Shown here piece after piece: positions 23,810 through 37,738 of a stretch of DNA of 64,000 nt. A model generated the notes under the pieces. That model was not told the DNA's origin and searched no databases. It saw nothing but the letters and a program-made list of their open reading frames with translations. The position numbers were made by a program, and so were the translations under genes. Within the stretch, counting starts at the first letter, position 1, and each line of letters starts with the position of its first letter. Source of the DNA: Escherichia phage W143; the sequence record MZ189262.1. One strand, given 5' to 3'.

Positions 23810-24391
23810 CTAACCGAGCTTTTTAGTTAATTCATTCCAATGTTTTCTACACAAAGAAACATAAATTTCATCACCAATACAAATTTGATTACCTTCTTTA
23901 ACTGGTGTTCCATCTTCCATTAATCGAGCTGTCATAATCGCTTTTTTACCACAATGACAAACTGCCTTCAGTTCAATAAGTTTATCTGCAATCGCCAAAA
24001 GTTCTTTAGAACCTTCAAATAATTTTCCAGCGAAATCAGTCCTTAGTCCATAAGCCATAACAGGAACATTATATGTATCGACAATTCGGCTTAATTGATG
24101 TACCTGTTCAGTTTTTAAAAACTGAGCTTCATCTACAAATACACAATGAATATCTTTTTGCGCTTCAGCCCATTTATAGAACTCAAAAATATCCATATCA
24201 TCCGTAATAATATTCGCTTCCTGTTTAATTCCAATGCGAGAAACGACTTCGCAGACAGAATCGCGAGTATCAATAGCAGGCTTAAGAACTAATACACTCA
24301 TTCCACGTTCTTTATAATTATGTGCAGCAGTCAAAAGAGAAGCAGATTTTCCAGCATTCATTGCTGCATAAGTAAAAATTAAACTCGCCAT
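23810..24391 (-). CDS. tk: Thymidine kinase
   Basis: 193 aa; P-loop AAMNAGKS; C-terminal cysteine cluster CHCGKK...CRKH. Confidence 0.9.
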   Translation of the reverse strand: MASLIFTYAAMNAGKSASLLTAAHNYKERGMSVLVLKPAIDTRDSVCEVVSRIGIKQEANIITDDMDIFEFYKWAEAQKDIHCVFVDEAQFLKTEQVHQLSRIVDTYNVPVMAYGLRTDFAGKLFEGSKELLAIADKLIELKAVCHCGKKAIMTARLMEDGTPVKEGNQICIGDEIYVSLCRKHWNELTKKLG

Positions 24392-24392
24392 C

Positions 24393-24581
24393 TTAGTCCT
24401 TAGTTAAATTTTCTAAATATGTTTCTAAATCATTTTCAGCTTTATCGATAGATTTTACTAATTCGTAATATGTTTCGGCATCTCCATATTCAGAAGATAT
24501 TTCAAAAGACAAATCCTTTTCTAAACTAACAATTTCACTAACTAAAAATAATATTTCGTTCTTTTGTTCGCGAGTAATCAT
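24393..24581 (-). CDS. Hypothetical acidic protein (62 aa)
   Basis: Resembles the adjacent 61-aa ORF (paralogous pair). Confidence 0.45.
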   Translation of the reverse strand: MITREQKNEILFLVSEIVSLEKDLSFEISSEYGDAETYYELVKSIDKAENDLETYLENLTKD

Positions 24582-24763
24582 AATGAATTTATATAATCAA
24601 TGAGTTCTTGTTCTTTATTATCGAATTCTTTAGAAAGTTCTTCGTACTCGTTTGCACTAAAAGGACCGCATTCATTACAAACTTTTTCCAATTCGCTATT
24701 TTTATCCATAACTTCGTGGATAAGAGAAAAGAGTTTGTCTTTTTGTTCTTTACTCAGACTCAT
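24578..24763 (-). CDS. Hypothetical acidic protein (61 aa)
   Basis: Paralogue of 24393-24581. Confidence 0.45.
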   Translation of the reverse strand: MSLSKEQKDKLFSLIHEVMDKNSELEKVCNECGPFSANEYEELSKEFDNKEQELIDYINSL

Positions 24764-24933
24764 ATATTAAATCCCAGAAGTTTTAAGATAATTCGCTTTT
24801 GCTTAAATATTTCCATCGTTAAATGATCAATATCTTTTTGACCAATTCCAATAGCAAAACCCTTATTTACGGCAAGTTCAATTAAATTATCAATATTGCG
24901 TAAAACTTCATAACGTAACTCAAAATTATTCAT
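24760..24933 (-). CDS. Small ORF (57 aa), not in the ORF track
   Basis: ATG 24933 with SD AAGGTGA; ATGA-type overlaps at both ends; hand-translated. Confidence 0.4.
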   Translation of the reverse strand: MNNFELRYEVLRNIDNLIELAVNKGFAIGIGQKDIDHLTMEIFKQKRIILKLLGFNI

Positions 24934-25157
24934 TTTGGTTCACCTTCTTTAACGAAATCCGGATAAGGATTAAATCCAGAATAAAATCCTTCACCTTTAT
25001 GATTGCTACAACCCTTGTTCGAGCAATAGCACCAATAATCAAAATCACAAGCCATTTCGTCATTGCATAAAGCAAAAACTACAGGCCATTCGCATTTTTC
25101 ACATTTAGCGCCTAGAAGAATTTTTGTTTGACTCATAACCACGTTACCTGCATACAA
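24930..25157 (-). CDS. Hypothetical cysteine-rich protein (75 aa)
   Basis: CEKCEW...C..C..C.C...C pattern suggests zinc binding. Confidence 0.5.
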   Translation of the reverse strand: MYAGNVVMSQTKILLGAKCEKCEWPVVFALCNDEMACDFDYWCYCSNKGCSNHKGEGFYSGFNPYPDFVKEGEPK

Positions 25158-25360
25158 TATTCTTCAACATGCTTTTTACGACCTTTCTTATCGATAAAGG
25201 TGTATTCCATAAAGCGACCAAGATATCGTCTTTCAACGTTATGAGGAGTATTAATAGGACACTTAGTCTGGCGAATTTCTTCCCATTCACGAATAATGAC
25301 TGCTTTATTCTTTGGGTCATACGGATGTGGATAATGTATATTCATAATAACGGTTCCCAA
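25133..25360 (-). CDS. Hypothetical protein (75 aa)
   Basis: ORF. Confidence 0.45.
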   Translation of the reverse strand: MGTVIMNIHYPHPYDPKNKAVIIREWEEIRQTKCPINTPHNVERRYLGRFMEYTFIDKKGRKKHVEEYCMQVTWL

Positions 25361-25809
25361 TTAACAATCACAATTTCTAATTTAGAGGAATATGTATCTA
25401 AAATCCCCTCAATAATATCCCAGTTCCCTTTACCTATGCCTGCACCAATCCTAGGCATATAGATTGTAGGTTTAATCAGTTTATTTTCACCAAACTCATT
25501 TAATTCTAACATACAATTCATTAAAGCGGAATACTCAAAATTTGGCCCTGGTTGAAATTGAGTATAAAGATTGAAGCAGTAAGCTTTATGAGTCCTAAAG
25601 TATTTTTCATAGACTGAGTAAAAACCGAGTTTAGTTACATCGCCCCATTCTGTCTGTAATTTATCAGCTTCCAAAATTTTAGGGAAAGCTTTGGTTAATT
25701 GACCCGCTACGCCTGAACCCATAGTATGAAAACAATTGCATCCATGCGCAATATTTTTACCTTCAGCGAAAAGGGCGACAATATCGCCCTTGATATATTT
25801 TACAATCAT
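25342..25809 (-). CDS. Macro-domain-like protein (ADP-ribose binding/processing), 155 aa
   Basis: GDIV..AHGCNC..MGSGVAGQ and PRIGAGIGKG resemble the two glycine-rich macro-domain loops. Confidence 0.55.
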   Translation of the reverse strand: MIVKYIKGDIVALFAEGKNIAHGCNCFHTMGSGVAGQLTKAFPKILEADKLQTEWGDVTKLGFYSVYEKYFRTHKAYCFNLYTQFQPGPNFEYSALMNCMLELNEFGENKLIKPTIYMPRIGAGIGKGNWDIIEGILDTYSSKLEIVIVNWEPLL

Positions 25810-26147
25810 CTAGTACTCAATCCTCGATTATAAGAATCTACCAAACGGTCAACCATTGAATGACAAGCGGCTTTATCTTTCTCCTCCGCAACTGAACATT
25901 CTAAGGTATTCCACTTTTTAGCATATCGTTTTAACAATGTATCATTTTTATATCTGCTTGATTTATCTCTTTCTCCGTCTTTATATGCATATATTAATTT
26001 CTGCGCAAATTCAGCTTGGCATGCTTTATTTTTCCCGCAATAATCCGCGGCAGTACGGTTTACATACTCTCTAATTTCAGTATATGATGTATTTGCTAAC
26101 GCAGAAAATGAAATTAATCCTACACATAAAACCAAAATTTTAGTCAT
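25806..26147 (-). CDS. Secreted cysteine-containing protein (113 aa)
   Basis: N-terminal signal peptide MTKILVLCVGLISFSALA, four cysteines. Confidence 0.5.
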   Translation of the reverse strand: MTKILVLCVGLISFSALANTSYTEIREYVNRTAADYCGKNKACQAEFAQKLIYAYKDGERDKSSRYKNDTLLKRYAKKWNTLECSVAEEKDKAACHSMVDRLVDSYNRGLSTR

Positions 26148-26685
26148 TTACTATTTCCAACAGTTTATTATTTTTAAGGTAGTTAGCCTTTTCTAGGACT
26201 TCAGAAGCATATTTAGAACCTGCTTTAACATTCCATCCCGAATTATAAGAGGATATTGCCTTTCTTATATCGCCCTTATGTATATTTAACCAATAAGAAA
26301 GTTCAATGTACGCCCAGGAAGCTGAATTGGACCGTTTATTCAACATTCTTTTTATTTCGGCATCGGTCATATTATAACCAAGTTCCTTAACTCTTGCTCG
26401 CATTGTCGGCAAATAATTTTGGAACATTCCATAGGCATGATGCTTTGGTTTAGATTTTAAATTAACTCCGGCAGAGCTTTCTTGCCATAAAATAGCAGCC
26501 ATTATATGACCTAATCCGCTCTTGTGGATATTTTTGTGTGTTTTATATTTTCCATCCTTAGAAAATTGTTCCCCGAATTGATACGCGTAACGCATGTTAT
26601 CGAGTTGGACATTACTGAAAGTATGCTCGGAGCTATGTGCCATCATAGAAATGGCCAATAGACCAGCGAGTAGTGCTTTTCTCAT
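26140..26685 (-). CDS. Secreted lytic transglycosylase-like protein (181 aa)
   Basis: Signal peptide MRKALLAGLLAISMMAHS; motifs WQESS, AYGMFQ, YNSG. Confidence 0.6.
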   Translation of the reverse strand: MRKALLAGLLAISMMAHSSEHTFSNVQLDNMRYAYQFGEQFSKDGKYKTHKNIHKSGLGHIMAAILWQESSAGVNLKSKPKHHAYGMFQNYLPTMRARVKELGYNMTDAEIKRMLNKRSNSASWAYIELSYWLNIHKGDIRKAISSYNSGWNVKAGSKYASEVLEKANYLKNNKLLEIVND

Positions 26686-26692
26686 GCTTACC

Positions 26693-27154
26693 TCATTGAG
26701 TTTTAATTACTGCTTTAGAAGCCTTTCCTGGTAAACGACGACTGTTGATAATTGCCATCCTGCACTGAAGTGACGGGTCTTTGAACTTCGCATTAGGTTT
26801 ACAAACTGTAAATCCAAGCCAAAGATTTCCATCTGTGATTTCTAAACGTCCAGGACGATATTCAACCCCATCAATAAAATCCTCATCAATGTCAGGACGT
26901 GGAGGCATACTCAGGAATTCATTAACTTCTAAAACGTGGTCTTTTATTTTATGGAATAATTCAAAAACATATGTCTCATCAATCTCCCGTTGAATTGCAC
27001 GATCAAGAAGATGCTGAGAATATTTTAGATGAAACGATGAGACCCCTGCTGCTTTTGATGCCTCACGAATCTCATTGTTAATTTGGCGAAACTCCGACTC
27101 AAAGTGACGACGGAGCTTATTTCGACGGATAAAAACTTCTGTGTTGATAGTCAT
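26693..27154 (-). CDS. regB: Endoribonuclease RegB
   Basis: 153 aa starting MTINTEVFIRRNKLRRHFESEF, matches my recollection of T4 RegB. Confidence 0.85.
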   Translation of the reverse strand: MTINTEVFIRRNKLRRHFESEFRQINNEIREASKAAGVSSFHLKYSQHLLDRAIQREIDETYVFELFHKIKDHVLEVNEFLSMPPRPDIDEDFIDGVEYRPGRLEITDGNLWLGFTVCKPNAKFKDPSLQCRMAIINSRRLPGKASKAVIKTQ

Positions 27155-36382: not shown

Positions 36383-36459
36383 TGGTCGAGGCAGAAGGAT
36401 TCTAACCTTCAACCAACGGATTAGAAATCCGTTGCTCTATACAATTGAGCTATGCCCCG
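36383..36459 (-). tRNA. tRNA-Arg (anticodon UCU)
   Basis: Hand-folded cloverleaf; anticodon loop TTTCTAA; CCA encoded; unusual T-loop TTAGAAT. Confidence 0.7.
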
Positions 36460-36462
36460 TAA

Positions 36463-37128
36463 TTAAAATTTCATTTTTCGACCTTTAAACCATCCTTCTG
36501 GAATTGGGTCAGTTTTCTTAATACGTTTAGAAACTTTTTCATCTAATGAATGAATCCACATCATACCGAATTGGGAATTCTTTTCACCTTGTTGGTGTTT
36601 ATTTCTGGCGTGAGATTCTTTCATTTTATTAATAGTTTCAGGAGTATGATGCTTATTTAAAAATCTGCTATTATTTAAAAATTTTTCCCTGTATTCAGGA
36701 GTTGACCACAAGCGTTTAAATATATTTGAACCATGTTTACGATATTTTTCTTGAAGTAAAATATCATTTTTAAAACGTGACTTAAACGATTTAGCTCCTT
36801 TTAAACTAGCGTCTTTCTTCTGATTTAGCATCTCAGGAATATTTAAATGGTCCCATCCACCTTCACCGCCAAGTTTTAAATTATACACATCTGGTCTATT
36901 TAAAAACTCTTCTGTGACAATATTTTTCTCGGCTTCAAGCATAGATTCTTTATCATCAAAATACTCTAATATTTCTTTAGAGAAATTTTCTATACCATAC
37001 TTGTCTTGGGCTCTTTTTAATAATTTACCAGAACCCATATATCCATCATCTAAATTTTCGGTAGAATGAGCGCCTATGTAGATTTTATTATTAATTTTAT
37101 TTGTTATTTTATAAATGTAATGGAACAT
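36463..37128 (-). CDS. segB: GIY-YIG homing endonuclease SegB-like, embedded in the tRNA cluster
   Basis: 221 aa; motifs YIYKITN...KIYIGAHS, DDGYMGSG, GGEGG; lies between tRNA-Ile and tRNA-Arg. Confidence 0.8.
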   Translation of the reverse strand: MFHYIYKITNKINNKIYIGAHSTENLDDGYMGSGKLLKRAQDKYGIENFSKEILEYFDDKESMLEAEKNIVTEEFLNRPDVYNLKLGGEGGWDHLNIPEMLNQKKDASLKGAKSFKSRFKNDILLQEKYRKHGSNIFKRLWSTPEYREKFLNNSRFLNKHHTPETINKMKESHARNKHQQGEKNSQFGMMWIHSLDEKVSKRIKKTDPIPEGWFKGRKMKF

Positions 37129-37169
37129 AAATATCTCCTATTTCTAAGAGTATTTATGTTCTCAAAATA

Positions 37170-37241
37170 TGGCCCTGGGTGGAATTGAACCACCATCTGG
37201 CGATTATGAGTCGCTTGCTTGAACCTTCCAGCTACAGGGCC
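37170..37241 (-). tRNA. tRNA-Ile (anticodon CAU, T4-type) or tRNA-Met
   Basis: Perfect acceptor stem GGCCCTG/CAGGGCC; anticodon loop CTCATAA; T-arm GGTGG-TTCAATT-CCACC. Confidence 0.75.
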
Positions 37242-37242
37242 T

Positions 37243-37318
37243 TGGTGCTGATTGACGGAATCGAACCGCCGACGTCCTCATTACAAGTGAGGTGCTCTAC
37301 CTACTGAGCTAAATCAGC
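37243..37318 (-). tRNA. tRNA-Thr (anticodon UGU)
   Basis: Anticodon loop CTTGTAA; CCA encoded. Confidence 0.8.
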
Positions 37319-37325
37319 GAAATTA

Positions 37326-37412
37326 CGGAGGCGATAGGATTTGAACCTATGAGTCGCCGGAGCGACTGCCGGTTTTCAAGACCGGTGCATTAAACCACTC
37401 TGCCACGCCTCC
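37326..37412 (-). tRNA. tRNA-Ser (anticodon UGA), long variable arm
   Basis: Anticodon loop CTTGAAA; 87 nt; 2-nt spacer to tRNA-Pro. Confidence 0.8.
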
Positions 37413-37414
37413 AG

Positions 37415-37488
37415 TCTCCGCGGCAGGATTTGAACCTGCGACATTCTGCTCCCAAAGCAGACGCTCTACCAAACTGAGCTACACGGAG
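37415..37488 (-). tRNA. tRNA-Pro (anticodon UGG)
   Basis: Anticodon loop TTTGGGA; T-arm GCAGG-TTCAAAT-CCTGC. Confidence 0.8.
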
Positions 37489-37498
37489 TAAATTAAAT

Positions 37499-37572
<74 letters not shown>

Positions 37573-37577
37573 AAATT

Positions 37578-37664
37578 TGGTGCGAGAAGTGGGACTCGAA
37601 CCCACAAGGAAATCATTCCGCAGCATTTTAAGTGCTGTGCCTTTACCAATTTGACCATTCTCGC
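37578..37664 (-). tRNA. tRNA-Leu (anticodon UAA), long variable arm
   Basis: Anticodon loop CTTAAAA; CCA encoded. Confidence 0.8.
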
Positions 37665-37665
37665 G

Positions 37666-37738
37666 CTGGGAATAAAGGACTCGAACCTTTGCATCTAGCA
37701 GTCAAAGTGCTATGCCTTACCAACTTGGCTAATTCCCA
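37666..37738 (-). tRNA. tRNA-Gln (anticodon UUG)
   Basis: Anticodon loop CTTTGAC; 1-nt spacer to tRNA-Leu. Confidence 0.8.

Follow-up and report, generated by a model that had tools for sequence, protein, structure and literature searches.

Tk.4 (AdfM) of Escherichia phage W143, a macro-domain protein of the ALC1/TARG1-like class with a probable role in removing DarT2-made ADP-ribose from phage DNA

Results

The tk.4 locus

The stretch of DNA that we analysed (the window) comprises 64,000 nucleotides of Escherichia phage W143 (MZ189262.1). The gene under study, the parts of its protein that matter below and its neighbours are as follows.

25342..25809, minus strand: tk.4/adfM coding sequence, 155 aa, a single macro domain (ORF list, ATG start)
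25732..25746, minus strand: codons H22-G23-C24-N25-C26 (80-sequence alignment and reference macro domains)
25699..25722, minus strand: first glycine-rich loop, M30-G-S-G-V-A-G-Q37 (alignments)
25558..25566, minus strand: codons Y82-T83-Q84 (plus strand ttgagtata, reverse complement TAT ACT CAA, Y-T-Q)
25420..25455, minus strand: second glycine-rich (diphosphate-binding) loop, P119-R-I-G-A-G-I-G-K-G-N-W130 (alignments)
25806..26147, minus strand: vs (valyl-tRNA synthetase modifier), upstream neighbour (PHROG 1256; 96% identical to T4 Vs)
25133..25345, minus strand: tk.3 homologue, downstream neighbour (PHROG 2008; 79% identical to T4 Tk.3 from the ATG at 25345)
23810..24391, minus strand: tk

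The W143 protein and T4 Tk.4 (NP_049723) are equal in length and identical at 153 of 155 residues (98.7%), and the two differences, F63 (Ser in T4) and N150 (Asp in T4), both fall outside the conserved motifs. The gene order regB-vs.1-vs-tk.4-...-tk, with tk.4 between vs and tk.3, is the same in the window and in T4. The open reading frame is the ortholog of phage T4 tk.4, lately renamed adfM (anti-DarT factor, macrodomain). The window as a whole belongs to a T4-like Tequatrovirus, with rI, rI.1, tk, tk.1, tk.2, vs, vs.1 and regB arranged as in T4. Since all these genes lie on the minus strand, tk.4 is transcribed before tk; the earlier note had put it downstream of tk, which is correct in plus-strand coordinates but not in the sense of transcription. 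In the ATGA at 25806-25809 the TGA stop of vs overlaps the ATG of tk.4, and in the ATGA at 25342-25345 the TGA stop of tk.4 overlaps the ATG of tk.3. The start and stop overlaps of T4 Tk.4 with vs and tk.3 are the same, and tk.4 is translationally coupled to both neighbours within the regB-vs-tk block.

The gene is already known. The T4 RefSeq label for tk.4 reads “phosphatase; Tk.4; contains A1pp phosphatase motif,” and annotation of the macro motif in T4 goes back a long time; “macro domain protein” is the name in many GenBank records of T4-like phages, and the anti-defence role was made public in 2025. The window itself adds no new biology on tk.4.

Some further features of the region were recorded. 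The window carries a cluster of eight tRNA genes at 36383..37738 on the minus strand (Arg, Met/Ile-CAT, Thr, Ser, Pro, Gly, Leu and Gln), which matches the T4 tRNA set and agrees with an origin from a Tequatrovirus. Between tk.2 and tk.3 lies a stretch of about 366 bp (24765..25130) that T4 does not have; two minus-strand open reading frames are found there, one of 57 aa (24760..24933, PHROG 3452) and one of 75 aa that is Cys-rich (24930..25157, PHROG 2306). A promoter scan around tk.4 gave 12 sites versus 15.1 expected from shuffled controls, that is, no excess. A terminator-like hairpin on the plus strand, and thus antisense, lies inside the 5' end of tk.4 (25771..25791; 8-bp stem with 5 G-C pairs, T-rich tail); it may be a chance match, with 4 such sites in the region versus 1.7 expected. 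Vs has 113 aa in the window versus 115 aa in T4, and in T4 vs was the most strongly depleted gene in minimal M9-glucose medium (HIDEN-SEQ preprint, 10.1101/2025.11.20.689424).

Tk.4 is a macro domain of the ALC1/TARG1-like class

The earlier note had read the protein as a macro domain from its glycine-rich loops, and this assignment holds. All of the motifs that it quoted are present: GDIV at residues 8-11, AHGCNC at 21-26, MGSGVAGQ at 30-37 and PRIGAGIGKG at 119-128. Pfam Macro (PF01661) matches at 26 bits against a gathering threshold of 22, with residues 22-132 aligned to profile positions 2-113 of 118, and PHROG 335 (“phosphatase”) matches at 9e-64. When a profile of 80 homologues of Tk.4 was compared with solved structures, it retrieved BT1257 (3e-20), TARG1 and SCO6735 (both about 1e-15), Poa1p (3e-14) and the Mtb DarG macrodomain (6e-14), scores that single out no one closest relative within the class.

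Structure prediction, which the earlier note had proposed as a check, gave the same answer. The AlphaFold2 model made with the 80-homologue alignment (pLDDT 95.5, pTM 0.91) has the three-layer α/β/α macro fold, and a Foldseek comparison of this model with the PDB returned TARG1, Poa1p, BT1257, DarG and SCO6735, all macro domains and all at probability 1.0. The nearest structures all belong to the ALC1/TARG1-like class, well apart from the MacroD-type and viral macro domains, and Tk.4 is a member of this class. Metagenomic homologues bear the JGI name “O-acetyl-ADP-ribose deacetylase (regulator of RNase III)”, a generic COG-style label that was not used as evidence.

The active site carries a glutamine

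Eleven positions are invariant among the 80 homologues: G23, N25, G33, A35, D49, Y82, T83, Q84, P119, I121 and G124. For comparison with characterised macro domains we used a MAFFT alignment, with TARG1 and BT1257 also placed by profile alignment. The numbering was checked against PDB-printed sequences for SCO6735 and BT1257 (PDB 5E3B and 2FG1) and for the Mtb and Taq DarG macrodomains (structures PDB 5M3E and 5M3I), and K80 of DarG was verified against 5M3I. In this alignment N25 corresponds to N22 of DarG and N27 of SCO6735, and H22 to H23 of Poa1p and H24 of SCO6735. Where DarG (K80) and TARG1 (K84) have their catalytic Lys, Tk.4 has Q84, the equivalent of the essential Gln85 of SCO6735. 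Tk.4 has S32 where SCO6735 (K34), BT1257 and both DarG macrodomains have Lys, and G126 where TARG1 has D125 and Poa1p has F152. Tk.4 thus has neither the Lys nor the Lys/Asp pair that DarG and TARG1 use.

The subclass of SCO6735 and BT1257 shares with Tk.4 the Gln and its supporting Asn (Q84/Q85, N25/N27). These proteins differ from Tk.4 in having K34 (SCO6735) instead of S32, a longer “mobile loop” after the catalytic Gln and a strongly basic character. By profile alignment, BT1257 has a 6-residue insertion in this loop relative to the Tk.4 family. The pI of Tk.4 is 6.3 and the median of the T-even clade is 5.5, against 8.6-9.7 for SCO6735, Taq DarG, BT1257 and TARG1. Beside the active-site loops the T-even clade has residues of its own: Y117, R120, P87, P89, C78 and L81.

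Yeast Poa1p has the H-x-C-N-C motif and the second glycine loop as in Tk.4, and presumably a Ser rather than Gln at the catalytic position aligned with Q84. Our Poa1p reference sequence agrees with the PDB print over residues 4-79 and 142-173 (chain 7-82 and 145-176) except for the F152A of the entry; the Ser lies just past the matched stretch.

Tk.4 differs from DarG and from PhiKZ AdfM

DarG proper, as in DarTG2, was considered and rejected as the identity of the protein. The NCBIfam equivalog NF048014 scores 28.9 bits against a cut-off of 250, Tk.4 has Q84 in place of K80, its 155 aa form one domain with no C-terminal DarT-binding domain, and no darT is adjacent, the neighbours being vs and tk.3. 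The PADLOC DarG model gives 35 bits, covering the macro part only.

Another stand-alone phage macro domain acting against DarTG2 is gp104 of PhiKZ, a DarG2-like macrodomain of chimalliviruses that is also called AdfM. The catalytic-site Asn is conserved in both proteins, whereas PhiKZ AdfM keeps the DarG-type Lys (K78) where Tk.4 has Gln84 (PMC13309987). A DarG query matched 265 phage records; 30 rows sampled across the ranking included chimalliviruses and phiEco32-like phages, and there was no T4-like phage among these 30. The DarG query and the Tk.4 family thus mark different sets of phages, and the AdfM proteins of T4 and PhiKZ are two independent recruitments of a macro domain against DarTG2 that share one name.

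A family shared with the NARP1-associated protein Adpp

T4 AdfM is a sibling of Adpp, not an “orphan DarG.” Of the phage NARP1 operons, 15% encode Adpp, a Poa1p-like macro protein described by Osterman and colleagues; it converts ADPR-1''-phosphate to ADPR, which lets NARP1 rebuild NAD+ (10.64898/2026.01.28.702374). Tk.4 is 34% identical (8e-23) to the macro protein of Vibrio phage Achelous, which in turn is 98.7% identical to the Adpp that was purified, Gary KNV71_gp137. Both Adpp and Tk.4 belong to PHROG 335 and have Gln at the catalytic position. The T-even and the NARP1-adjacent members have in common the core motifs H-G-C-N-C, M-G-x-G, Y-[TS]-Q and P-I-G-[AC]-G-[IL]-[AG]-G-G-x-W, and Adpp shares H-x-C-N-C, Y-[TGS]-Q and P-x-I-G-x-G with Tk.4. 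We found no core motif that separates the AdfM type (T-even) from the Adpp type (NARP1-adjacent); the only clade-specific differences are second-shell ones, at the T-even residues listed above.

The two proteins differ in their surroundings: Adpp is flanked by Adps and Namat and serves to restore NAD+, whereas tk.4 stands in the vs-tk block. A tblastn search with Adps and Namat found nothing in the 64-kb window. The Adps-macro-Namat operon is seen in the Thalassavirus Vibrio phages Achelous and Gary; arrangements of NARP1-AP type stand at L001:4132-7138, L083:1629-4659 and L002:1901-5474, Acinetobacter phage Liucustia included. In Liucustia, whose locus is of NARP1-AP type with a Tk.4 homologue, the order is Adps, a small ORF, Namat and the macro gene.

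Spread of the family and allele classes of tk.4

By tblastn, Tk.4 homologues occur in 2753 of 50,697 phage records (about 5%). A survey of 79 IMG/VR loci plus reference records showed three contexts: the T-even block regB-vs.1-vs-tk.4-...-tk, adjacency to Adps and/or Namat (NARP1), and others. In a neighbour-joining tree of these 79 loci plus reference macro domains, which carries no support values and serves as a rough guide only, the phage family has Poa1p as its nearest reference and is separate from DarG, TARG1 and SCO6735/BT1257, with the T-even clade monophyletic and the NARP1-adjacent members scattered.

By identity, the alleles of tk.4 form discrete classes, at 95-99% in 217 records, 80-90% in 159 and below 60% in the rest. 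In one metagenomic locus (L036:4656-7807, IMG/VR UViG_3300010279_000005) the products of regB, vs.1, vs and tk are 97-100% identical to those of window positions 23810..27154, and between these near-identical flanks the tk.4 allele is just 57% identical to that of the window. This looks like a cassette-like allele replacement.

Discussion

Based on these findings, we propose how Tk.4 acts in phage W143. The identity of the gene, its fold and its active-site residues come directly from our analysis, and the functional evidence has been obtained with T4. In a transposon-library screen of T4 on a DarTG2 host (HIDEN-SEQ), tk.4 was the single significant hit, and a clean knockout sensitised T4 to DarTG2, after which the gene was renamed adfM; the authors of this preprint proposed, from the similarity to DarG, that AdfM removes ADP-ribose from DNA (10.1101/2025.11.20.689424). 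The result fits the earlier observation that T4 lacking adfA and adfN is still resistant to DarTG2, which had predicted a further factor (PMC11825919). Among the three roles that the earlier note had offered, the reversal of host immunity based on ADP-ribosylation therefore has genetic support, through a T4 gene that is conditionally essential against DarTG2 (10.1101/2025.11.20.689424) and encodes the 98.7%-identical protein. The phenotype is known from T4 and from a preprint, and the competence of a Gln-type site is likewise taken from the literature. SCO6735 is an efficient hydrolase for the ADP-ribose that DarT attaches to thymidine, and the changes Q85A/E and N27S each inactivate the enzyme, N27S leaving almost no activity (PMC9411070). 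Because SCO6735 has the Gln/Asn arrangement of Tk.4 and cleaves dT-ADPr, a Gln-type site is competent for the proposed reaction. DarG, TARG1 and SCO6735, the ALC1-like-class hydrolases tested, all cleave dT-ADPr (PMC9411070). PhiKZ AdfM, an unrelated macro domain from a phage, can likewise strip DNA in vitro of the ADP-ribose added by DarT2 (PMC13309987).

We consider it likely that Tk.4 protects the phage from DarTG2 through hydrolysis of the thymine-ADP-ribose adduct on its single-stranded DNA, with an SCO6735-like Gln84/Asn25 site. On a DarTG2 host, DarT2 would ADP-ribosylate thymidines in single-stranded phage DNA and replication would be blocked. The two glycine-rich loops of Tk.4 would bind the ADP-ribose, and the bond between thymine N3 and ribose C1'' would then be hydrolysed, giving free ADP-ribose and restored DNA. 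As in SCO6735-type catalysis, Gln84, held by Asn25, would position the distal ribose, and no Lys nucleophile would take part. That Tk.4 itself removes ADP-ribose from DNA is inferred. Several findings speak against a DNA adduct as the substrate. Tk.4 is without the catalytic Lys of DarG, TARG1 and PhiKZ AdfM, and it has S32 in place of the DNA-contacting K34 of SCO6735, whose longer mobile loop it lacks as well; Tk.4 and the T-even clade are acidic and the DNA-acting relatives basic; and Adpp, the only biochemically characterised member of the same phage family, is an ADPR-1''-phosphate phosphatase with the same motifs.

On a different reading, the physiological substrate is a small molecule: Tk.4 would dephosphorylate ADP-ribose-1''-phosphate as Adpp and yeast Poa1p do, and protection from DarTG2 would be secondary. 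The defence aRES generates ADPR-1''-phosphate from NAD+ by RES-type phosphorolysis, and Adpp helps only as part of NARP1-AP (10.64898/2026.01.28.702374). The earlier note had suggested a role in degrading NAD-derived signalling molecules; the 34%-identical Adpp gives this idea a precedent (10.64898/2026.01.28.702374), yet the NARP1 partners that it needs are missing, with neither Adps nor Namat in the 64-kb window. The T-even clade is monophyletic and apart from the NARP1-adjacent members, with Y117, R120, P87 and P89 as its own residues near the active site, and the sole T4 phenotype on record is the one against DarTG2. We also know of no NARP1 described for T4, and overall we regard a small-molecule substrate as rather unlikely. 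The acidic surface of Tk.4, which suits protein binding more than DNA binding, would fit a protein that acts on DarT2 mainly as a stoichiometric inhibitor, bound to the toxin, instead of hydrolysing the adduct, and catalytically dead macro domains of SCO6735, DarG and TARG1 all inhibit DarT in vitro (PMC9411070). However, 80 diverse homologues keep N25, Q84 and both glycine loops without change, a sign of selection on catalysis, and Tk.4 with its 155 aa lacks the C-terminal DarT-binding domain of DarG (DarG model, 338 positions), so that we think toxin binding very unlikely to be the main mechanism.

Least probable in our judgement, and hardly to be expected, is that Tk.4 erases the marks that the ADP-ribosyltransferases of the phage itself (Alt, ModA and ModB) set on host proteins or RNA, tuning the takeover of the cell. 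The substrates of the T4 enzymes are mainly arginine-linked, and to our knowledge this linkage has not been reported as a target of the ALC1/TARG1-like macro class, which counts against such a role. T-even phages do encode several ADP-ribosyltransferases (PMC9503650), and ADP-ribose linked to proteins and to nucleic acids is among the substrates of TARG1-class macro domains (PMC9411070). On the other hand, T4 can do without tk.4 on E. coli K-12 that lacks DarTG2 (10.1101/2025.11.20.689424), and within the window tk.4 has no genomic linkage to alt or mod. The corresponding suggestion of the earlier note, a balance to the phage's own enzymes, thus found no support.

Returning to hydrolysis of the thymine-ADP-ribose adduct as the preferred explanation, we tentatively raise a wider idea, which is possible but for which we would give well under an even chance: the Tk.4/Adpp family (PHROG 335) might be one Gln-type “C1''-leaving-group” hydrolase, acting on DarT2-modified thymidines as well as on ADPR-1''-phosphate, and the allele classes of tk.4 might mark an arms race over substrates or DarT2 variants. 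If this were true, one small protein would help the phage against DarTG2 and, together with NARP1, against aRES, two defences with different mechanisms. For the T4-like phages, tk.4 explains resistance to DarTG2, which bears on the prediction of phage host range and on the choice of therapeutic phages.
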